From the NCBI GenBank assembly GCA_964350985.1, contig CAYGLK010000001.1:1-50271 (forward strand): a stretch of 50,271 nt of DNA, read 5' to 3'. Below are positions 1 to 50,271 of the stretch, piece by piece. The first letter of the stretch is position 1. Each line of letters begins with the position of its first letter. A program made the translations under genes and the position numbers. The notes beneath the pieces were generated by a model. The model saw only the letters and a program-made list of their open reading frames with translations, had not been told where the DNA came from and did no database searches. Source of the DNA: an uncultured Candidatus Saccharibacteria bacterium. GTDB taxonomy: Bacteria; Patescibacteriota; Minisyncoccia; Phycocordibacterales; UBA918.

Positions 1-52
1 AAGTCGTAACAAGGCACGGCTAGCGGAAGCTGGTCGTGGATTAATTCCAATT
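1..52 (+). rRNA. rrs: 16S rRNA, 3'-terminal ~50 nt (gene body lies upstream of the window)
   Basis: AAGTCGTAACAAGG at 1-14 (universal 1492 region). Helix-45 hairpin 15-38 (CACGGCUAG / C-GGAA-G loop / CUGGUCGUG). Tail reads GAUUAAUUCCAA where GAUCACCUCCUUA is expected. Exact mature 3' end cannot be fixed from sequence. Confidence 0.85.
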
Positions 53-255
53 GGATACGTCGGATTATAGGGGTGACCCTATAACTTCACGGCTAATTGG
101 TCGATGTTATGTGCCTCAATTGAGCACATAACGAGGAATGACACTAATCCTCTAAAATGGTGTCAGACTCCAGGGAAAGACCGGACTTTAGAATAAGACA
201 AAAGAGCGTATTCCATCATTGATGGAACCTCCTTTTGCAAATTTTTGCATACGTC
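53..255 (+). other. Hairpin-rich 16S 3' trailer (or intervening sequence) containing ACCUCCUUUU at 227-236
   Basis: Consecutive stems: 65-84 (GUGA loop), 106-114/124-132, 139-165, 211-227, 236-249. No ORF. Ends at a terminator. Confidence 0.5.
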
Positions 256-281
256 AAAAAACCGCCAATTGGCGGTTTTTT
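256..281 (+). terminator. Intrinsic terminator closing the 16S transcription unit
   Basis: AAAAAACCGCC-AATT-GGCGGTTTTTT; no 23S/5S follows. Confidence 0.7.
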
Positions 282-315
282 GCGTGGTTGAAATTTAAAC
301 TAAAGAAAAAGTATA

Positions 316-356
316 GAAAAAGCACAGCAAGTCTGAAAGACTTGCTGTGCTTTTTT
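316..356. terminator. Bidirectional hairpin terminator
   Basis: AGCACAGCAAGTC-TGAAA-GACTTGCTGTGCT (321-351) flanked by an A-run and a T-run. Lies just downstream of the minus-strand gene 383..640. Confidence 0.7.
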
Positions 357-761: not shown

Positions 762-1310
762 TTAAGATCCACAGATTCTCTGAACGTCTGCTGTTGGTGG
801 TCCAGATGAATACTGTCTCTCACACCACTTTTCAATATAGTCTGGTCTTGAGGGAGCCTCTCCTCCTAGACCTGTACTATCAACTAAAAGATTAACAATC
901 CCGTAAAAGGCGATCAAAAAGACAAAAGCGGCAACTCCGTAGATAGCGAGAGCTTTGGCTTTTTTCTGACCTTCTTCATTTGAGCCGCCAAGAATAAAGT
1001 AACGAAAAACATTGATAACAAAAAACAGAAAAGCTAAACCAAAAAGGAAGGGAACTAGTGTTCCTAATACAAACTGGGTAGTGTTGACGATTAGTAGTTG
1101 AACACCTTGTTGTGAGGAGGTGTTTGAGTTTTGTCCAACTGATGGTGAGCCTTCTTCATACCCACCACGCGACTGGCAATCACCGCGGGAAATTATTATT
1201 TCAGATCCGTCAGGGAGTACGCAATTTACATTTTGAATTAGAGTTGATTGCGCAAAAGTGACAGACGGAAACAAGAAAGCAAAGACAAAGAGGGCAGTAA
1301 TATATTTCAT
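762..1310 (-). CDS. TrbC/VirB2-like type IV secretion pilin family protein (CPR-type)
   Basis: Signal peptide MKYITALFVFAFLFPSVTFAQ. Two hydrophobic helices are joined by the loop GGSNEEGQKKAKALAIYG, typical of conjugative-pilin-like proteins common in CPR. Start moved from the track's 1631 to ATG 1310 because of TATACT-N7-ATG and because the extension overlaps the + gene 1422..1694. Confidence 0.6.
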   Translation of the reverse strand: MKYITALFVFAFLFPSVTFAQSTLIQNVNCVLPDGSEIIISRGDCQSRGGYEEGSPSVGQNSNTSSQQGVQLLIVNTTQFVLGTLVPFLFGLAFLFFVINVFRYFILGGSNEEGQKKAKALAIYGVAAFVFLIAFYGIVNLLVDSTGLGGEAPSRPDYIEKWCERQYSSGPPTADVQRICGS

Positions 1311-1421
1311 ATTAGTTAGTATAGCGCACAAATAAAGACCGAAAAGAGGAAATAGACAGTTGACTTTTACCTTAATATGTGATATTATTAGGTTTGGATC
1401 AACGACCCCAAGGGAGGGGTT

Positions 1422-1694
1422 ATGAACAAGGTAATAGTATTTTTGTACGCGTTGGGAGTTGTTGGGTTGCTGGGGATTGGAATCTATCTTTCCCTGGACA
1501 CCCCGGTTGGCTATGCTGACCGCCAGACAGGCGTCTGTATTGCAGTCTGGGACAACAACAACGTCTTGGTACCGTGCGCAGGTGTCTACGACCTCCGCTA
1601 CGCGCCAAAGGGAGTCAAGACTCCAGAGCAATTGTCACTGCTCCTGGATGTGCCTGTTTCGAAAGAATTCAGACAGGCTCTCGCGCAGAAATGA
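1422..1694 (+). CDS. Small membrane/secreted protein (90 aa), GC-rich, SD-led
   Basis: GGGAGG at 1412-1417 upstream of the ATG, N-terminal hydrophobic helix, terminator at 1711-1746. G+C is 35/60 in line 1501-1560. Confidence 0.55.
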   Translation: MNKVIVFLYALGVVGLLGIGIYLSLDTPVGYADRQTGVCIAVWDNNNVLVPCAGVYDLRYAPKGVKTPEQLSLLLDVPVSKEFRQALAQK

Positions 1695-1822: not shown

Positions 1823-1962
1823 AAAAACCCTCGAAATTTGTCGCTTGCGTAATTTGTGCGCGCTCTAGGGGTCGAACCTAGGACCTTTCGAGTATCAGTC
1901 GAATGCTCTAGCCAACTGAGCTAAGCGCGCACAAATTAAACAAACAAATTTCGAGGGTTTTT
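1823..1962 (-). repeat. Nested inverted repeats enclosing the tRNA (19-bp outer stem, 7-bp extension of the acceptor stem)
   Basis: 1823-1841 aaaaaccctcgaaatttgt is the exact reverse complement of 1944-1962. 1851-1863 aatttgtgcgcgc is the exact reverse complement of 1925-1937. Confidence 0.9.
1857..1930 (-). tRNA. tRNA-Ile (anticodon GAU), 74 nt, CCA not encoded
   Basis: Hand-folded cloverleaf: acceptor GCGCGCU/AGCGCGC, D-stem GCUC/GAGC, anticodon stem UUCGA/UCGAA with loop CUGAUAC, variable loop AGGUC, T-arm CUAGG-UUCGACC-CCUAG, discriminator A. Confidence 0.95.
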
Positions 1963-27977: not shown

Positions 27978-28066
27978 ATATGATTTTATTGAAGTATTGC
28001 TTTTTTCATATTTTATTGTACTCTTCAATTGGACCTGAATTCCTCTAGTCCTTTGTTTTAAACAAC

Positions 28067-28073
28067 AAGGAGG
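28067..28073 (+). promoter_or_regulatory. Canonical Shine-Dalgarno AAGGAGG, 5 nt before ATG 28079
   Basis: aacaAAGGAGGcagtcATG. Confidence 0.7.
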
Positions 28074-28078
28074 CAGTC

Positions 28079-28828
28079 ATGCCAGACGTTAAGTACAATA
28101 CGGGACCTTTCGCCACTCGTGCGATCGATTCCGAGCAGCAAGCAGGGATTGACGATGTGATGACCTCGATGCTGGTCGTCGCCACATTGGCTGGTTTTAC
28201 CAACCGAGTCAGGCTCACTGTTCCGGTGACGCCACTCATCTTTCCCGGTGTCTTCGACACCGATATTACAACGCTGATGCAGTGCAGTGTTGTGGATTGG
28301 TACGACAACTGTCCCGACGAGTTTGAACCGGCTTCGAAACACCTGCTTGTTGCAGGTCATCACGAGTCGGCTGGAAAACGAGAAGGTCTCAGTGTTTCGC
28401 GACTGCAAGACATCTTTGATGGTGGTCCTGTGATTCACTCACAGGTTGAAGCAGAGAACACACCAGACCAAGTACGCTGGGTTGCAGATCAAGTTGAAGA
28501 GTTGGACTTGGTAGCGGTGGCCTTGAGGGCACATCCTTTTCACGTCATGCGCGCTTTCTTGACGCAGTTGGCGGAGTTTCGCCGGCGCCGGCTGAAGGTA
28601 ATTCTTCTGCCGTGGTTGTCTCTGAGGGATCCTTTTGGCCAGTTTCCATTGACCAACCCCTGGTCTGAGACCAAGTCAGACGCTGAGTTGTGGCCAGGAG
28701 AAGCCAAACGTATCTTGGACTACAGCCAGAAGGGAGACGTGTCCACGTTGGCTGACTTGAAGGACTATTCCGACTGGCTCTTCAACGAGTCGGCTGCAGC
28801 TAGCGGACTAAGGCCTTTTGGCGCCTGA
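28079..28828 (+). CDS. Hypothetical protein, possibly DUF218/YdcF-ElyC-like (GC-rich)
   Basis: EAENTPDQVRWV..LDLVAVALRAHPFHVMRAF resembles the DUF218 pattern (E..S.NT.EN...lVTs..HM.RA). G+C is 33/60 in line 28081-28140 against 22/60 in line 26161-26220. Confidence 0.45.
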   Translation: MPDVKYNTGPFATRAIDSEQQAGIDDVMTSMLVVATLAGFTNRVRLTVPVTPLIFPGVFDTDITTLMQCSVVDWYDNCPDEFEPASKHLLVAGHHESAGKREGLSVSRLQDIFDGGPVIHSQVEAENTPDQVRWVADQVEELDLVAVALRAHPFHVMRAFLTQLAEFRRRRLKVILLPWLSLRDPFGQFPLTNPWSETKSDAELWPGEAKRILDYSQKGDVSTLADLKDYSDWLFNESAAASGLRPFGA

Positions 28829-41479: not shown

Positions 41480-41482
41480 TTT

Positions 41483-44400
41483 ATGGCTACTTCTCTTCAG
41501 ACAAAAGCCTTGAATTCAATCGCTAAAATAGCAATTTTACTTTTGGTGTTGTTGCCGGTAATCACTCAAGCGCAGATAAATCCTCAAATTAACTACCAAG
41601 GAAAGCTAACTGATGCTAGTGGTGTGGCTGTGCCTGACGGCTTGTACAACATGAACTTCTGGTTAATCGCCTCAGACGTAGCGGCTACCAGTTCTGCTGT
41701 CTGGTCTGAAACTCTAGTGAGTGGTAACCGGGTTCAAATTACTAATGGATTGTTCTCAGTGATGCTCGGTGAGCAATCTTCGCTAGCGGCTGTGGATTTT
41801 GATCAGACACTTTATCTTGGAGTTGAGATCGGTGGTATCAGTACAACTACTCCAGCTTGGGATGGTGAAATGAGTCCACGAAAAATTCTTGGTGCAGTGC
41901 CAGCAGCTTTTCAAGCAAATAATGCCAACAATGCTGAAGCTCTAAGCGGCATCGCAAGTAGTTCTTTCTTGCGCAGTGATGAGGTAGATACTATGGAGGC
42001 AACCTCTAGTTCGCCAGTACTTTCAATTATCCAAAGAGGTGTTGGTAAAGTCCTTAGTCTTTTCAGTGGAGTCACTGAAGTGTTTACAGTTTTAAATAAT
42101 GGAAATGTAGGAATCGGAGACACAAGCCCTAGTCACTCTTTGGTTGTAGCAACTTCATCTGAAAGTGGAGATCTGATTGCAGTCAATTCAAACAATGGAA
42201 CTTCAGTGATTCTGGGAATTGATTCTTCAGGAATTAATCATTACTTGGGGAAAATAAATTTATCAGGCTCGACAAACACGAGTGGAGATCGAGGTATTGG
42301 AGGAAGAATTACAGCTAATGCAGCAAATGATATCTATCAAGCAAACGACGCTGTTTTTCAATTTGACGCCACTTCTGCAGGGGGAGATATTTCAAATGCA
42401 AATGCTTATACTTTCAATGAAAATAATGTTGCTCGGATGGTTATTGATGCAAATGGAAACGTTGGTATTGGTACTACTACTCCAAACTATCGCCTTACTG
42501 TCTCTGGTGACTTTAATTCTACGGGAGCACTTCGCTTTAATGGAGACGCAGGCACAACAGGCCAAGTACTTTTATCAAACGGAAGTTCTGCTCCGTCGTG
42601 GACCTCAACTTCAACGCTTGGTTTCCAAGCCTATGACGCAGAACTAAATGCACTAGCCGGACTCGCTTCAGGAGCAGACCTACTACCATACTTCACCGGA
42701 TCAGGTACAGCTGGACAAACAACCTTCACTGCTTTTGCTAGAACTCTACTGGATGACACTAATGCTTCAGTAGCTAGAACAACACTAGGAGCAACCACGG
42801 TTGGAGCAAACATCTTTACTCTAGCTAACCCAAGTGCAGTTAGACTAATCCAAATCAATGCAGATAACACTGTGACTGCGATTGCGACTTCGTCGTTGGG
42901 AGTTGGCTCAGTCACTTCAGTAGCTGCCACCGTTCCAACTGGATTCACAATTGGAGGTTCACCAATAACTACTTCAGGCACGCTGGCATTTGATTTTGCT
43001 GCCGGTTACGAAGGACTACGAAGCGCTTCTTCAACAAACTGGAACAACTTCTATAACACTCCAAGTACAAGAATTACTGCAGCTAATAATTTAGCTTGGA
43101 CAGGGAATACGCTAGGTGTGGCAGCGGGATACAACATCCCACTAACTGCTTCTTCAACCGAATGGTCACAAGCTTACGCCTCAACCACTGCCCTTACTCC
43201 AACATACTTACGAGGACTATTTTCAAACACAGCTACTGGACTGACATATACCTCAGGTACTGGCGTCACTTCACTAACTGGTGGGTACAACATCCCACTA
43301 ACAGCTTCAACTACTGAGTGGAGCAATGCTCTAGCTTCAACTCATCCTCCAGTTACTATCACTGGCGAAAACTATCTTTCACTTAACGGCAGTCAACAAA
43401 TCACCGCTAATCAAATCAACCTAGCAGGCACAAATGTTACTGGCACACTACCAGTGACTCAGGGAGGAACAGGTATTACTGCTTTTGGCGCAGGCGTTGC
43501 TGCTTTCCTTGGCACACCATCAAGCGCTAACTTAGCTGCTGCTGTCACTAATGAAGTAGGGACTGGTCCATTGGTATTTGCATCAAGTACTGTTTTAACT
43601 TCTCCAACATTAACAGGCACACCAATCTTGCCGGGAACATTTACTATCGGTGCTAATAACTTCATCCGTTCAGGGGCACATAGCTTAACTTTAACCACTA
43701 CTGGTACAACAGTGGCTACTATCCCTTCTGGAACAAATACTCTTTATGGTACAGGGTCGGGATCAATTACTTCAGCTCAACTAGCAACTTCACTTTCAAA
43801 TGAAGTAGGGACTGGTCCGGCGGTGTTTGCGTCTAGTACTATGTTGACAGCTCCAACCTTAACAGGGACAACTACAGCTACCAATTTGGCTGTCAGCGGA
43901 AACAGTGTCTTTGCCACAACGACTATTAATAATTTAACTCTGACTCAAGCCTTAGGCTTAGCCAACGGAGGAACAGGAGCAACTACTCAAGCTGGAGCTC
44001 GAACTAACTTAGGGGCAACCACAGTCGGATCAAACATCTTTACTCTAGCTAACCCAAGTGCAGTAAGTTTGTTGCGAATCAATGCTGATAACACTGTAAC
44101 TGCAGTGGCGACTTCGTCTCTTGGATTTAACGATCACGCTTCAGTAACAGTGACAGGTGAAAACTACCTGTCACTTTCAGGACAACAAATCACTGCTAAT
44201 CAAATTAACCTAGCTGGCACAAATGTTACTGGAACCCTACCAGTGGCTCAAGGAGGAACAGGCATCACATCATTCGGTTCAGGCGTCGCAACCGCCCTTG
44301 GCATCAACGTCGGTACAGCTGGATCTTTTGTCACCAACGGCGGCGCTCTTGGTACACCATCATCAGGAACACTAACTAATGCTACTGGATTACCAATCAC

Positions 44401-47400
44401 TACAGGAGTCTCCGGTCTAGCGGCTAACATAGCAACTTTCTTAGGTACGCCATCGAGCGCCAACTTAGCTGCTGCTGTCACTGATGAAACCGGAACAGGG
44501 AGCGTGGTCTTCTCTGATTCACCAACACTAACTGGCAACGCAACTCTAGTAAACGCTTCAACAACTGCACTTACTGCAAATACTCTTTATTTTAATAACG
44601 CTTCTTCAACTGGAGGTCTTACTCTTGCAACCCTCTACGGTGCAAATTTGACTTCATGTAATTCTGCTACAGAAAAACTCTTATGGACTAATGGAACGTT
44701 TACTTGTGGAGTAGATGCAGGTGGAGCTGGAGGTACAATAGAAAGTTTAAATGGTAGTACTGTTGCTTCACAAAGTTTTGCTACTTCAAGTTCAGGAGGA
44801 CTTAACCTCACAGTTAGCAGTGATATTGGTTCAGGAGTCCATACTTTCACAATCGGTACTCTTGCTGGATATTCGCTACCTCTAACCGCATCATCAACCA
44901 ACTGGAATACTTTCTACAACACTCCAAGTACAAGAATTTCTACCACTGACAATCTTGCTTGGACAGGAAACACACTAGGAGTTGCTGCCGGATACAACAT
45001 CCCACTAACAGCTTCTACTACAAACTGGAACAACACATACAACACAGTGACCGCTAACAGTGCGAGTTGGAATGCAGCCGCAGCTTCAACTACTGCTCTA
45101 ACTCCAGCATACTTACGCGGACTATTTTCAAACACTGCAACTGGACTAACATACACTTCAGGAACTGGAGTCACTTCATTAACAGCTGGATACACTATTC
45201 CACTGACAGCTTCAACTACTGAGTGGAGCAATAAAGTTTCATCACAGTGGACAACTAGTGGTACTGATATTTATTACAATACTGGGAATGTGGGGATTGG
45301 AACTACGGCCCCAAATGCTAAATTGTCTCTAGGTGCAACTACAGCTGCACAAAAGGTTCTACTGTACGAAAGTGGTAATACTCGATTTGGTTTTGGTACA
45401 CCTGGTGCTGGTGAACTTAGAATGTTTACCGCAGGTGGAGCAGGAAGTTTTATCGGTTTTGGTCAGGTTTCAAGTTCAGATGGTAGTACATATTCTGAAT
45501 TTATGAGAATTAATGGAAGTGGAGACGTCGGTATTGGTACAACAACACCACAGGAGAAACTTCATGTAAGTGGTGGAGATATTAGTATCGAACGCGGCAC
45601 CACCTATAATTCTTATCGTCCAGACGTAAACATTATGTATCAGCTTCTTGGTCATGATACTTCAAACAACGTAAACCTTTACGGAATAGGAACAAATGAT
45701 TATCTCAGAATAACACCTGGAGGAGAATTTCGTTTTATCGAAAATAATATTCAGTTACTAACTTTGACCAATACTACAGGTTACCTTGGTATTGGTACCA
45801 CCACTCCTTCAGCCAAACTCTCAGTTACTGGCTCTGGTACTGGTACTGGCCTCCTTGCTCAATTCACTGACAGTGCTAACACACCACGAATGACAATTTT
45901 GGATAATGGGAATATTGGTATCGGCACAACCACACCAGGAAGCCAATTGACTATACAAAGGTTTGAAAGTGCGAGCGGTGGAGCTGGAGACAGTCAAATT
46001 TCTCTAATTTCTTCAATCGGAGGAAATGTCCTTGAAGGATACTCCATTGGTGGAATCGATTTTGTTTCAAATGATTTAAATACGCTATATACAGTGGCTA
46101 GTATTAAGGCAATTGCTTCTGGCTCTCATACCGGTTCTAGTTATGATACTGACTTGGTCTTTAGTGCAACGACTGACAATTCTCCAGTGGAATATATGCG
46201 AATCGATAAAGATGGAAATATCGGTATCGGTACCAGTACTCCAGGATACCGACTCACCGTAGCTGGAGACACTAACTTCACTGGAGTACTCCGTTTAAAC
46301 GGTAACTCAGGTACCTCAGGACAAGTACTACAATCCACTGGTTCAAGTGCACCAGCTTGGGTAGCAACTTCATCTCTAGGTTTCGGTACTGGCTCAGTCA
46401 CCAGCGTTGATGGTTCAGGTGGTACTACCGGACTAACTCTAACTGGCGGACCAATCACAACTTCAGGAACCTTAACTCTTGGTGGTACTTTAGCAGTGGC
46501 TAATGGAGGTACAGGCATCACATCATTCGGAACTGGAGTGGCTACTGCACTTGGTATCAACGTTGGTACCGCTGGATCTTTTGTCACCAACGGCGGAGCA
46601 CTAGGTACACCTGCTTCAGGAACACTAACTAATGCTACTGGACTACCGATCATCGCTGGAACAACTGGTACCCTTACAGTTGCCAGGGGTGGTACCGGAG
46701 CAACTGATGCCTCAGGCGCTCGAACAAACCTCGGCCTCGCTATCGGATCAGACGTCCAAGCATACGACGCAGAACTAAACGCACTTGCTGGACTATCTTC
46801 AGACACTGACCTACTACCATACTTCACTGGCATTGGTACCGCAGGACAAACTACACTAACTTCTTTTGCTAGAACTCTACTTAATGATACAGACGCTTCA
46901 GTTGCTAGAGCTACTCTTGGTCTAAACAATGTGGAGAACACAGCACTTTCAACTTGGGCTGGTTCTTCAAATATCAATACTGTTGGCGTCCTAAACTCTG
47001 GATCAATCAATACTGGCTTTGGCAACATCAACATCGGTGCTAGTACTTTCACTACAACTGGAGCTGCTTCAATTGGAAACGCTTCAACTACTAACCTCAC
47101 AGTTACTGGCAACAGTTACTTAGGTACAGTACAAAGTGGAGTATGGAATGGTTCAGTTATTGGAGACGCATATCTTGATAAGACAGGAAACTGGACTGGA
47201 ACTTTTGATGGACAAGAGGGAACTTTCTACCTAAACCGAGCTAACCACACAGGTACACAAACTGCTTCAACTATCTCAGACTTTAGTACTACTGCTCGAG
47301 GATTATTCTCAAACACAGCTACCGGCTTAACATACACTTCAGGTACTGGTGTTACTTCACTAACAGCCGGATACACAATTCCACTTACAGCTTCAACAAC

Positions 47401-50271
47401 TGAGTGGGCTAACAACAACCACGCTCCAGTTACTATTGCTGGTCAAAACTACCTCTCACTATCTGGACAAGTGTTAACCGCAAACGCAGTTAACCTAGCA
47501 AGCTCTAATGTCACTGGCACACTACCAGTGGCTAATGGCGGTACTGGAGCTATCACTCTTGGAGCTGGTCAGATTCTAGTTGGCAATGGTACTGGAGCTG
47601 TCACTAGTACTAGTACAGCTAACTTGAAGACTACTCTTGGTCTAAACAATGTGGAGAACACAGCACTTTCAACTTGGGCTGGTTCTTCAAATATCAATAC
47701 TGTTGGCGTCCTAAACTCTGGATCAATCAATACTGGCTTTGGCAACATCAACATCGGAGCTAGTACTTTCACTACAACTGGAGCAGCTTCAATCGGAAAC
47801 GCTTCAACTACTAACCTCACAGTTACTGGCAACAGTTACCTAGGTACACCAATTAGTCTGACTCTAACAAATGCTACTGGACTACCAATCGTTGGTGGAA
47901 CAACTGGTACATTAAGTGTGGCCAGAGGTGGTACTGGAGCTACTACTTTAACTGGTATCCCAGTTGGCAATGGTACAAGTGCTATGACCGCAGTTGCGGG
48001 TACAGGAAGTCAAATCCTCCGTCGTAACGCAGGAAACAGCGCCTATGAGTTCGCGACCCTCTCACCAACTATTACTCTCGGTACTGACTTAACTGGCTCA
48101 GCCTCTCTCACCAACCTTGGTTCTGCTACCCTCAACGCCACCATCGCTGCCAACGCTGTCACCCTCGCTAAGTTCCAAACAATCGGTACTGGCAGTATCC
48201 TTGGTCGCTCTACTGCTGGCACTGGCAACGTTGAAGTTCTTAGTACTTTGCCGACTGCAGTGCAAGACAACATCACTAGAACTGGAGTATTAAATAGTGG
48301 ATCAATCAATACTGGCTTTGGCAACATCAACATCGGAGCAAGTACCTTTACTACTACTGGGGCAGCTTCAATCGGAAACGCCTCAACCACAAACTTAACT
48401 GTCGCTACTAATAGTTACCTTGGTACTGTTCAAAGTGGACTATGGCAGGGAACAGCGATCGGAGCTATCTACGGAGGAACAGGTCAAACTACCTACGCTA
48501 CAGGAGATCTTTTATATGCTTCAAACTCAACTACTCTAGCGCGTAGAGCTATTGGAACAGCGGGTCAAATCCTCCTAGTTACCGGAGGATTACCAACTTG
48601 GACTTCTACTTCAACTCTGGGACTTTCATCAAGTTTCTCTAACTCAGCTCAACTTGCAGCGTTACTTTCTGACGAAGTAGGAACTGGTCCAGCAGTGTTT
48701 GCTTCTTCAACTGTTCTAACAGCTCCAACTGTGTTTGGCACAACTACACTTTGGAATAATGTTGGGATTGGGACTACTAACCCTGGAGCAAAACTAGAAG
48801 TAGTTGGAGATATTATTTCTAAAGGAACAGAGTGGACTAGTAGAACTACGCCAGTTGATAACCAATGGACTTCTGTCACTTACGGCAACGGCCTGTTTGT
48901 GGCTGTTGCTCAGTCAGGGACAGATAATCGTGTCATGACCTCACCGGATGGAGTTAACTGGGCTACCACCACGAGTTATGCAGATTATAATTGGTCAGAT
49001 ATAACCTACGGCAACGGTCTGTTTGTCGCCGTGTCATCAGATGGTTATGGCGACCGCGTCATGACTTCACCTGATGGAATTAATTGGACGGGTCGAAATA
49101 GCGCTGCTGATAATCCATGGTCAGATATCACCTACGGCAAAGGCACGTTTGTAGCGGTGGCATCTTTTGGGTCTGGTGACGATGTTATGACTTCGCCGGA
49201 CGGAATAAATTGGACCTCTCACAGCAGTGCTGCTGCTAATGAATGGACTGCTATCACCTACGGCAATGGACTTTTTGTTGCTGTCTCTGGAGACGGAACT
49301 GATCGCGTCATGACTTCTCCAGACGGTATTACTTGGACGTCACGCACTAGTATTTCTAAGTATTGGAATGACATAACCTATGGTAATGGTCTCTTCGTTG
49401 CTGTTGCATATGATGACGGTGTTATGACTTCTCCAGACGGTATTACTTGGACATCACGCTCCAGCGCTGCTTCAAATGCTTGGCAATCTGTCACCTACGG
49501 AAATGGACTTTTTGTCGCTGTGTCAGAAGACGGTTCTGGCAACCGCGTCATGACCTCACCTGACGGTATTACTTGGACATCTAGAGCTAGTGCGGCTGAT
49601 AATAATTGGTTCTCTGTAACTTACGGCAATGGCATCTTTGTGGCTGTGTCATTCGACGGTTCAAGTAACCGCGTCATGACCTCGGGCAAAACTGAACTCA
49701 ACGCTCTAGCAAACAACAACATCTACCAAGGAGGTATGAGTGTTTTTGGGAACGTAAATATTGGGACCACAACTGATACTGGATTGCCGTTTTATGTAGA
49801 AGGAGATATTGGTATAGGTTCTTCGGGTCAATATGGTAGCTTGTATTTCAATCGTGATTACAATAATCCAGGTGGGATCACCTATGATTTTACCAACAAC
49901 AAACTCAGTTTGGGGACAAATTATGATTTTTCTAGATTAGTGATTGGAGACAATGGTAATGTGGGTATAGGTACAACAAACCCAGGAGCGAAGCTTGAAG
50001 TGGTTGGTGATATTGTTTCCAAGGGAACCTCTTGGACCAGTAGGACGACCCCAACTTCTAACCTTTGGTCTTCAATTACTTACGGCAATGGACTCTTTGT
50101 GGCAGTTGCGTTTACAGGTACCGGCGACCGCGTCGTAACATCACCAGATGGAGTTAACTGGGCTACTTCTACCACTCCTGCTGATAATAGTTGGCAATCC
50201 GTCACCTACGGTAACGGTCTTTTTGTGGCAGTGGCAAACTCAGGTTCTGGCAACCGCGTCATGACCTCACC
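41483..50271 (+). CDS. Giant secreted/surface protein (>2,929 codons, 3' end outside the window) built from tail-fibre-like repeat modules and Asp-box beta-propellers
   Basis: ATG 41483 lies 3 nt after the upstream stop. N-terminus [31 protein letters not shown] looks like a signal or anchor. The frame was hand-checked as open at 41483-42660, 45242, 46742 and 50222, and no in-frame stop produces a track entry. Recurrent motifs: GNVGIGTT(T)P..KL.V.G, GGTG...[24 protein letters not shown]. All minus-strand ORFs here are P/V/A-rich shadows. Confidence 0.9.
46911..47128 (+). repeat. Intragenic 218-bp direct repeat, copy 1
   Basis: Differs from 47631-47848 at 4 positions (47038, 47065, 47074, 47120). 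The offset is exactly 720 bp, so the copies are in frame. Confidence 0.95.
47631..47848 (+). repeat. Intragenic 218-bp direct repeat, copy 2
   Basis: See copy 1. A third, diverged copy at ~48285-48425 shares a 42-nt identical core (48298-48339). Confidence 0.95.
48833..49690 (+). other. Seven tandem ~40-aa blades with Asp-box (S-P-D-G-x-x-W): predicted 7-bladed beta-propeller domain of the giant protein
   Basis: Seven copies of W..(I/V)TYGNG(L/I)FVAV....G..RVMTSPDG(I/V)(N/T)W. A second array starts at 50033 and runs off the window. Confidence 0.7.

Follow-up and report, generated by a model that had tools for sequence, protein, structure and literature searches.

A 16S rRNA gene ends at the start of the DNA analysed here (the window, 50,271 nucleotides long), and its 3′ tail does not carry the CCUCC core of the anti-Shine–Dalgarno (anti-SD) sequence. 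A string that resembles this core, ACCUCCUUUU, is found downstream at positions 227–236, shortly before a terminator. The locus raises the question of whether the ribosome has lost its anti-SD or whether the anti-SD has been displaced. The original prediction offered two readings: (a) that the mature 16S rRNA ends near position 50 and has no canonical anti-SD, in keeping with SD-free gene starts across the window, and (b) that positions 41–226 are an intervening sequence separating helix 45 from the real anti-SD. Here, we favour an explanation that combines an anti-SD-less 16S rRNA, a conserved processing trailer and leaderless gene starts, and give it as a whole a probability of about 0.8. 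On this view, a stand-alone 16S rRNA gene of Paceibacteria (Parcubacteria, CPR/Patescibacteria) origin reaches into the window with its last 51 nt, positions 41–207 would be a conserved and covarying 3′ trailer of the 16S precursor (pre-16S) rather than an insertion, and ACCUCCUUUU would be the pyrimidine strand of a local hairpin and not a hidden docking site; the estimate applies to these parts jointly.

The 16S 3′ end and the missing anti-SD

The covariance search that had been proposed as a check places the 3′ end of the 16S rRNA at window positions 1–51, where the Rfam model of the bacterial small subunit (SSU) rRNA (RF00177) matches with its positions 1483–1533 (E 2.6e-9). This match contains the hallmarks of the bacterial 16S 3′ minor domain, namely the AAGUCGUAACAAGG linker followed by helix 45 with its GGAA loop, while the 5′ part of the gene is located upstream of the window. 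The sequence itself, the Rfam alignment and the folds all agree with the helix 45 that had been predicted (table 1). From position 39, the tail reads GAUUAAUUCCAAU. In the alignment, GGAUUAAUUCCAAU is found opposite the consensus GGAUcACCUCCUUu and stands where GGAUCACCUCCUUA is expected; the tail has no CCUCC core in the first ~10 nt after helix 45.

Table 1. Coordinates of the features at the start of the window.
Positions	Strand	Feature	Basis
1–14	+	16S linker AAGUCGUAACAAGG, from helix 44 to helix 45	RF00177 alignment, model positions 1483–1496
15–38	+	16S helix 45, 10-bp stem with GGAA loop	Rfam alignment and folds
39–57	+	16S 3′ tail without anti-SD: GAUUAAU, then possible mini-hairpin UCC-AAUU-GGA (46–55)	SSU alignment, relatives
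58–91	+	Trailer hairpin with GNRA loop GUGA (73–76)	Minimum free energy (MFE) folds; basal helix with two-sided compensatory changes
93–105	+	Conserved box CUAAUUGGUCGAUG	Nearly invariant in 18 relatives; predicted precursor pairing with tail 47–54 or 39–45
106–132	+	Conserved hairpin with CUCAAUUGAG apex	8 of 11 pairs changed on both sides with pairing kept; seen in several tail families
133–170	+	Trailer hairpin, stem 139–146/158–165	Folds of window and relatives
170–185	+	GGGAAAGACC hairpin CCAGG-GAAAGA-CCGG with conserved GGAAAGAC motif	RNAalifold helix, 4 of 5 pairs with two-sided changes
186–207	+	CUUUAGAAUAAGACAAAAGAG, presumed 3′ strand of the leader–trailer helix closing pre-16S (RNase III stem)	Homology to the block of relatives
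208–249	+	Distal trailer, non-conserved: hairpin 211–227, ACCUCCUUUU (227–236), small hairpin 237–248	No alignment between genera
256–281	+	Intrinsic terminator CCGCC-AAUU-GGCGG-U6, bidirectional, with an A run before and a U run after the hairpin	Sequence and fold
317–355		Second terminator hairpin, shared with the convergent minus-strand gene 383–640	Terminator scan, 18-pair stem on minus strand

To place this tail among its relatives, genomes (one per species) were scanned with a 26-nt helix 45 string that left the tail unspecified. The string is present in at least 119 contigs, all of which carry Patescibacteria labels (Paceibacterota, Nomura-, Kaiser-, Zambryski-, Yonath-, Giovannoni-, Staskawicz- and Niyogibacteria, and generic 'Saccharibacteria'). 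CCUCC directly follows helix 45 in none of the 119 Patescibacteria loci listed with the same helix 45, and the loss of the anti-SD therefore appears to be clade-wide; it is thus, judging from these tails, a trait of the clade and not particular to the window's genome. The tails among these at least 119 loci belong to several families, including GAUUAAUUCCAAUUGGA (the family of the window), GAAUAAUUCAAUUUGAA, GAUUAACUCAAAUUGAG, GAACAUAUCCAAUCGGA, GAAUAUUUCAAGGUGAA and others. Reading (a) is upheld in its main point, the absence of a canonical anti-SD, by the SSU alignment, by all 119 relatives listed and by genes that do without SD sequences (see below), but the mature end 'near 50' is not established, and the conserved mini-hairpin described below extends to position 55.

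An anti-SD-less 16S rRNA is already published biology for this lineage (PMC9297842; PMC10783764). According to Tsurumaki et al. (2022, RNA 28:1041, PMC9297842), the CCTCCT motif is found in only 48% of Parcubacteria, and its loss is limited to a subgroup of Parcubacteria that overlaps the group without uL1. A PLoS One survey from 2024 (PMC10783764) counts Campbellbacteria and Wolfebacteria among SD-scarce organisms, in which both CCUCC and SD pairing are absent. The window resembles these Parcubacteria, as the consulted parts of both reports present them, in having no CCUCC(U) 3′ of helix 45 and scant or absent use of SD sequences; those parts score the presence or absence of the motif, whereas a replacement mini-hairpin, a trailer and promoter-proximal starts are not described there. 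Most CPR are reported to have lost Era (PMC10582724, PMC12641178), a protein that binds GAUCACCUCC. The clade is a natural system for the study of 30S maturation and initiation without the GAUCACCUCC element, and a ribosome without an anti-SD is biologically important, yet already reported for the lineage. The ribosomes of Bacteroidetes are said to possess an anti-SD that is sequestered by bS21, bS18 and bS6. They share with the window's lineage an SD-independent initiation in which the 16S 3′ tail is out of reach of the mRNA, but in Bacteroidetes CCUCC is kept and masked by protein, whereas here CCUCC is gone and the tail is able to form an RNA hairpin.

The tails without an anti-SD have a common layout. 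In nearly every tail of the loci listed, GGA is followed by an A/U linker of 4–5 nt and then by a possible hairpin of 3–5 bp, the stem of which varies on both sides between families (UCC/GGA, UUCA/UGAA, CUCA/UGAG, UUUCA/UGAAA, GUC/GAC, UUCC/GGAA and, at locus L055, CUCCU/AGGAG). The longest Watson–Crick stem has a mean of 3.60 over 92 unique 20-nt tails, versus 2.95 ± 0.09 after shuffling. In 18 close relatives, the alignment columns are invariant up to window position 55, and variation begins after this point. The tail of locus L055 (CAYZNS010000010.1) reads GGAAUUUCUCCUUUUAAGGAGUAU, in which CUCCU and AAGGAG of the same tail form a stem, as if an anti-SD had been shut by an SD beside it. In the explanation that we favour, the CCUCC core would have been replaced in this lineage by the short A/U-rich linker and the small covarying hairpin, and the ribosome would therefore be unable to form an SD helix. 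A covarying mini-hairpin of 3–5 bp at the former site of the anti-SD seems to be undescribed, as we found no account of it.

The trailer and a presumed leader–trailer helix

The chain of stems that had been predicted to follow the tail is found where it was placed: positions 1–295 fold with −111.5 kcal/mol (z −8.1 versus shuffles), forming stems at about 62–88, 106–132, 139–165 and 211–227. The window was aligned with 17 relatives that share its tail and with the nearest relative found (L120, a Paceibacterota metagenome-assembled genome). These 18 relatives represent several named candidate groups, and their trailers are conserved starting at helix 45 and up to window position 207, where conservation ends. 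Two-sided compensatory changes are seen in 17 of 43 pairs predicted by RNAalifold, and the same architecture is adopted by 18 of 18 trailers folded (z between −2 and −4.5). The hairpin at 58–91 keeps a GGUAAC or GGUGAC apex in relatives above differing stem sequences, and other tail families likewise contain the GUCGAU core of the conserved box and the hairpins with CUCAAUUGAG and GGAAAGAC.

The conserved box may pair with the tail in the precursor. MFE folds pair positions 47–54, which include bases of the mini-hairpin, with 93–100 in 16 of 18 trailers, while RNAalifold favours 39–45 with 96–102. Neither pairing is accompanied by covariation; the columns are invariant, and other families show no consistent compensation by eye. 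At locus L072, the pairing between tail and box is broken and the mini-hairpin is kept. We take the pairing of tail and box as a prediction only.

The conserved part of the trailer ends in a block, AAGGAUAAGACAAAAGAG in relatives and AGAAUAAG in the window (186–207), whose homologue AAAGGAUAAGACAAAAGAG in relatives matches UUCUUUUGUCUUAUCCUUU of their 16S leader as an exact complement. At position 192, the window has an A in place of a G that is paired with C in relatives. The two strands covary: matched blocks differ by family (for example UCUUUUGUCUUAUCC, UCUUGUGUUCCGCCUAUUC and UUUGUUUUGUUUCGUUC), and loci L070 and L072 have matched variants in leader and trailer. Relatives contain exact leader/trailer complements of 16–21 nt, and in 28 loci for which leader and trailer are both present, the mean length of the longest exact reverse complement is 16.1 nt, versus 8.6 nt in a downstream control. 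The leader belonging to the window was sought in three ways. A 1.9-kb Logan contig found via the first gene ends inside helix 45; a scan of genome contigs with the predicted leader strand TCTTTTGTCTTATTCTAAAG gave a match solely in an unrelated coding region of Saprospiraceae; and a comparison of three DNA runs (X1–X3) with the leader of a relative gave a contig that has the stem block and lacks a link to the window's organism. Positions 186–207 are presumed to be a strand of the processing stem by homology, the leader partner being seen in relatives. They would pair with the leader upstream of the 16S rRNA, and the rRNA would be enclosed by a long helix comparable to a classical RNase III stem.

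The leader–trailer helix of E. coli-type pre-16S is a classical substrate of RNase III, which reportedly cleaves it in E. coli. In the relatives of the window, as in E. coli, complementary blocks on either side of the 16S rRNA would close it in a long-range helix, and in this clade the complementarity covaries between families. The two systems differ in that the 3′ strand is located about 150 nt after helix 45 in the window, versus 33 nt in E. coli, with four conserved hairpins between them, that the transcript contains the 16S rRNA alone, and that for this clade we infer cleavage, with its enzyme and its sites, from the helix. The trailer is an ordinary, though long and well-conserved, processing spacer. 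No description was found of a trailer of ~150 nt with four hairpins that is closed by a leader–trailer helix in a 16S-only unit, and this feature, like the mini-hairpin and the promoter boxes described below, may merit a short follow-up.

The trailer is transcribed. Contigs nearly identical to it are present in seven RNA-labelled runs from five studies, and six of the seven start at position 1 or 35–44 and stop at about 187–199, within the stem block; the seventh (X25, labelled 'RNA?') extends from the trailer into the terminator hairpin at 256–281. These are assembled contigs with depths of 2–7 rather than reads, and their ends, which may be assembly-graph branches or lost coverage, fit an RNA end in the stem as supporting evidence and not as proof. 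Words of helix 45 are common to many taxa, such that depths are not comparable for a ratio of mature to precursor RNA, and the contigs gave no position for the mature 3′ end. No contig from the seven RNA runs joins a position of about 40 to one of about 227. In the source DNA run, a contig with a depth of 200 runs from position 26 past 420.

The displaced motif and alternative readings

The elements on which reading (b) was built, ACCUCCUUUU at 227–236, TGGA at both 37–40 and 223–226, and the hairpin at 211–227, are all present in the sequence. ACCUCCUUUU is located outside the presumed processing helix, past the last conserved block. None of the 18 aligned relatives has CCUCC at the homologous place; L120 can be aligned through the terminator and has AUCUCCUUUU there (UCUCC). 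Within 600 nt after helix 45, CCTCC occurs 25 times over the 119 loci listed, at or below the background rate of the window and at positions from 21 to 569. At the k-mer rates of the window, the chance of at least one match in 240 nt is 0.15 for CCTCC and about 0.01–0.04 for ACCTCC, and the downstream CCUCC is only mildly unexpected. In the full fold, 227–237 form the descending strand of a hairpin, with CAAAAGAG(CG)U at 199–209 as the ascending partner, and a second fold agrees in part; the resemblance of ACCUCCUUUU to an anti-SD would arise because it is the complement of this purine-rich block. The changed U of L120 could pair with an A in its AGAGAG version of the block (by eye), while the MFE fold of L120 pairs the motif with AAAGGA instead. 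ACCUCCUUUU is probably the pyrimidine strand of this hairpin, and transcription would proceed through the short variable stretch that holds it to the terminator at 256–281.

The excision of 41–226 as an intervening sequence or intron, joining ACCUCCUUUU to helix 45 as a functional anti-SD, would account for TGGA at both junctions, for the match of 8–10 nt between ACCUCCUUUU and the canonical tail, and for an ACCTCC so close to helix 45, which is improbable by chance at the rate given above. This reading is contradicted by the conservation of the supposed insertion: a check had been proposed of whether 41–226 are variably present in relatives, and a homologue of 41–207 is kept in all 18 aligned and is recognizable in other tail families, and it contains the strand that pairs with the 16S leader in relatives. 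Removal would restore no conserved rRNA, given that the downstream CCUCC is unconserved (UCUCC in L120) and CCTCC is scattered at or below background in the loci listed. ACCUCCUUUU is itself base-paired in the predicted hairpin, and the genes have no SD sequences for it to pair with. No group I or group II intron family matches positions 1–400 (Rfam, E up to 10), and six of the seven RNA contigs end before ACCUCCUUUU, with a spliced joint in none. To our knowledge, moreover, bacterial rRNA intervening sequences are excised without religation, so that excision would leave a downstream anti-SD separate from helix 45. We regard reading (b) as highly improbable, and a conserved trailer leaves no need for a new class of 16S intervening sequence, since it accounts for the supposed 'insertion' and leaves the 'displaced anti-SD' outside the conserved part. 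Equally improbable is a 16S pseudogene in decay, or an artefact of assembly, with a true 16S gene of normal tail elsewhere, which would draw on the mere 51 nt of the 16S gene that the window holds. This reading was dropped, since the identical tail recurs in many independent assemblies (one of them a complete genome), complete 16S genes with the same tail score about 1380–1390 bits, the junction is borne out by the DNA contig with a depth of 200 and the region is transcribed.

Two further alternatives accept the trailer and differ from the preferred explanation in its fate or in that of the tail. The trailer (about 44–199) might be released as a stable small RNA and act in its own right rather than as a spacer, and the recurrence of contigs of 151–162 nt, from about 35/44 to 187/199, in the RNA runs of several studies would fit this, as would its strong structure and sequence conservation. 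We consider it unlikely given the very low depths, the lack of a matching Rfam family, and contig bounds that are equally explained by graph branches on the 16S side and an RNA or coverage end on the stem side; the position of the trailer and its pairing with the leader suit an ordinary processing spacer. More plausible, but still tentative, is a mature 16S rRNA that is extended at its 3′ end and keeps at least the mini-hairpin (to about 55–57), with a closed stem-loop at the usual site of the SD helix. Retention is favoured by the covariation of the stem, of which at least six types occur among 92 unique tails, by the invariant columns that reach window position 55 and then break, and by the CUCCU-UUUA-AGGAG of L055, where an anti-SD-like strand is closed by an SD-like strand in cis. 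Against this, the stem is just 3–5 bp long and the mini-hairpin alone is weak (−1.9 kcal/mol, z −0.4), precursor MFE folds pair the same bases with the box at 93–100, and other blocks of the spacer are equally conserved, which makes conservation no marker of maturity. A bolder form of the idea, that the anti-SD was replaced by a selected 3′-terminal stem-loop that is kept on the mature 16S rRNA, fills the SD-helix site on the platform and mimics the SD duplex for leaderless initiation, with tails of the L055 type as intermediates, is doubtful; if true, the precursor pairing of the same bases with the trailer box (93–100) would give an assembly-dependent switch.

CPR 16S genes are well known to contain insertions, namely group I introns that carry homing endonucleases (Brown et al. 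2015, cited by 10.1101/705046), and the window resembles these in having extra sequence in or beside a CPR 16S rRNA. It differs in that 41–226 are not variably present, have neither an intron fold nor an open reading frame (ORF), and are located 3′ of the rRNA rather than inside it. Among the relatives, L120 (DAOLBU010000033.1, 165–1000) has an insertion of ~830 nt in its 16S gene near E. coli position 1395 (CUUGUACUCAC before it and AUUCGCCCGUCA after it) that encodes a LAGLIDADG homing endonuclease (Pfam PF00961, E 7.5e-18); as a result, the SSU model match stops at L120 position 221, while the true helix 45 is at 1097. A group I intron is present in the 16S gene of L006, and a group II intron domain is located just after the 16S gene of L064.

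Gene starts and the surroundings of the 16S gene

Gene starts were surveyed in 37 ORFs at 383–41479, with starts assigned by a simple longest-ORF rule, and 184 internal in-frame ATGs served as the control. The expectation that genes across the window begin without SD sequences holds: no SD enrichment is seen before gene starts relative to the internal ATGs, and only 2 of 37 genes reach −6 kcal/mol or below. Hybridization of the 20 nt before the start (−20 to −1) with a canonical anti-SD has a mean energy of −1.65 kcal/mol for genes versus −2.58 kcal/mol for controls. An alternative SD that matches the new tail was also considered and rejected, since complements of this tail are not enriched upstream of the 37 starts. 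The sole textbook SD in the window belongs to the gene at 28079–28828 (AAGGAGG, 5 nt before ATG, −11.4 kcal/mol; window 28060–28081); the 16S rRNA of this genome is unable to pair with it, and it may have arisen by chance or by recent acquisition. In the whole window, GGAGG occurs 54 times on the plus strand and 13 times on the minus strand, a fourfold difference, and most genes are on the plus strand. The lack of an anti-SD could mean that there is no selection against internal SD-like motifs, and this is proposed for the skew of GGAGG, with codon usage as another possible cause.

What precedes the starts instead is a promoter-like box. TANNNT ends 5–10 nt upstream of the start in 49% of the 37 genes, versus 12% of the 184 internal ATGs, and many of the start-adjacent boxes are good extended −10 elements (TGCTATAAT, GGTATACT and GGTATAAT). 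The spacing of the −10 element puts the predicted transcription start at the start codon or a few nucleotides from it. The simplest reading of these boxes is that promoter-proximal genes would have leaderless or near-leaderless mRNAs, on which translation starts, and that the other starts, within operons, would presumably be SD-independent. Leaderless mRNAs are reportedly translated in Actinobacteria, Deinococcus and archaea. The window resembles those systems in having a −10 box a few nucleotides before the start codon and no SD; the difference is that leaderless starts are suggested here by spacing statistics of promoter boxes on 37 genes. Promoter-abutted starts suggest that leaderless initiation lets these cells do without SD pairing, and promoter boxes that abut start codons appear not to have been described in this clade, in that no description was found.

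The 16S gene forms a transcription unit of its own, as the original prediction held. No 23S or 5S gene is found in the 50 kb of the window, where the only other Rfam match at gathering score is a tRNA-Ile(GAU) (1856–1930, minus strand), and no 23S gene is located within several kilobases downstream of the 16S gene in 18 relatives. The predicted terminator at 256–281 is present (A6-CCGCC-AAUU-GGCGG-U6); it was missed by a terminator scan because its U run pairs with the upstream A run. Several weak Rfam matches in 227–357 (csRNA, rli40, SNORA81 and others) were set aside, all of them being below the gathering score and on terminator hairpins. Unlinked rRNA genes are a clade-specific trait of the CPR (Lui et al. 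2021, PMC8172020; Brewer et al. 2020, bioRxiv 10.1101/705046). The window, with a 16S gene apart from 23S–5S and with its own terminator, shows no material difference from these and is one more example.

The tRNA-Ile(GAU) is located 1.8 kb downstream of the 16S gene on the opposite strand, and tRNA-Ile(GAU) is the usual tRNA of the 16S–23S spacer. A tRNA is found about 0.6–4 kb downstream of the 16S gene, in either orientation, in 18 of 18 relatives scanned; the tRNA-Ile(GAU) of the window may be left over from the spacer of a former operon. Beside the 16S gene, the ORF at 762–1631 (minus strand, 289 aa) has a sub-threshold match to a family of type IV secretion pilins (PF18895, E 1.3e-4, 22.5 bits versus a cut-off of 26.6). 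At the other end of the window, a stop-free frame of at least 2930 codons (41480–50271, plus strand) runs off the end, and the minus-strand ORFs listed in 41480–50271 are shadows of it. This frame has a signal-like segment at its N-terminus and repeats of 126 nt (42 aa), and likely encodes a giant surface protein.
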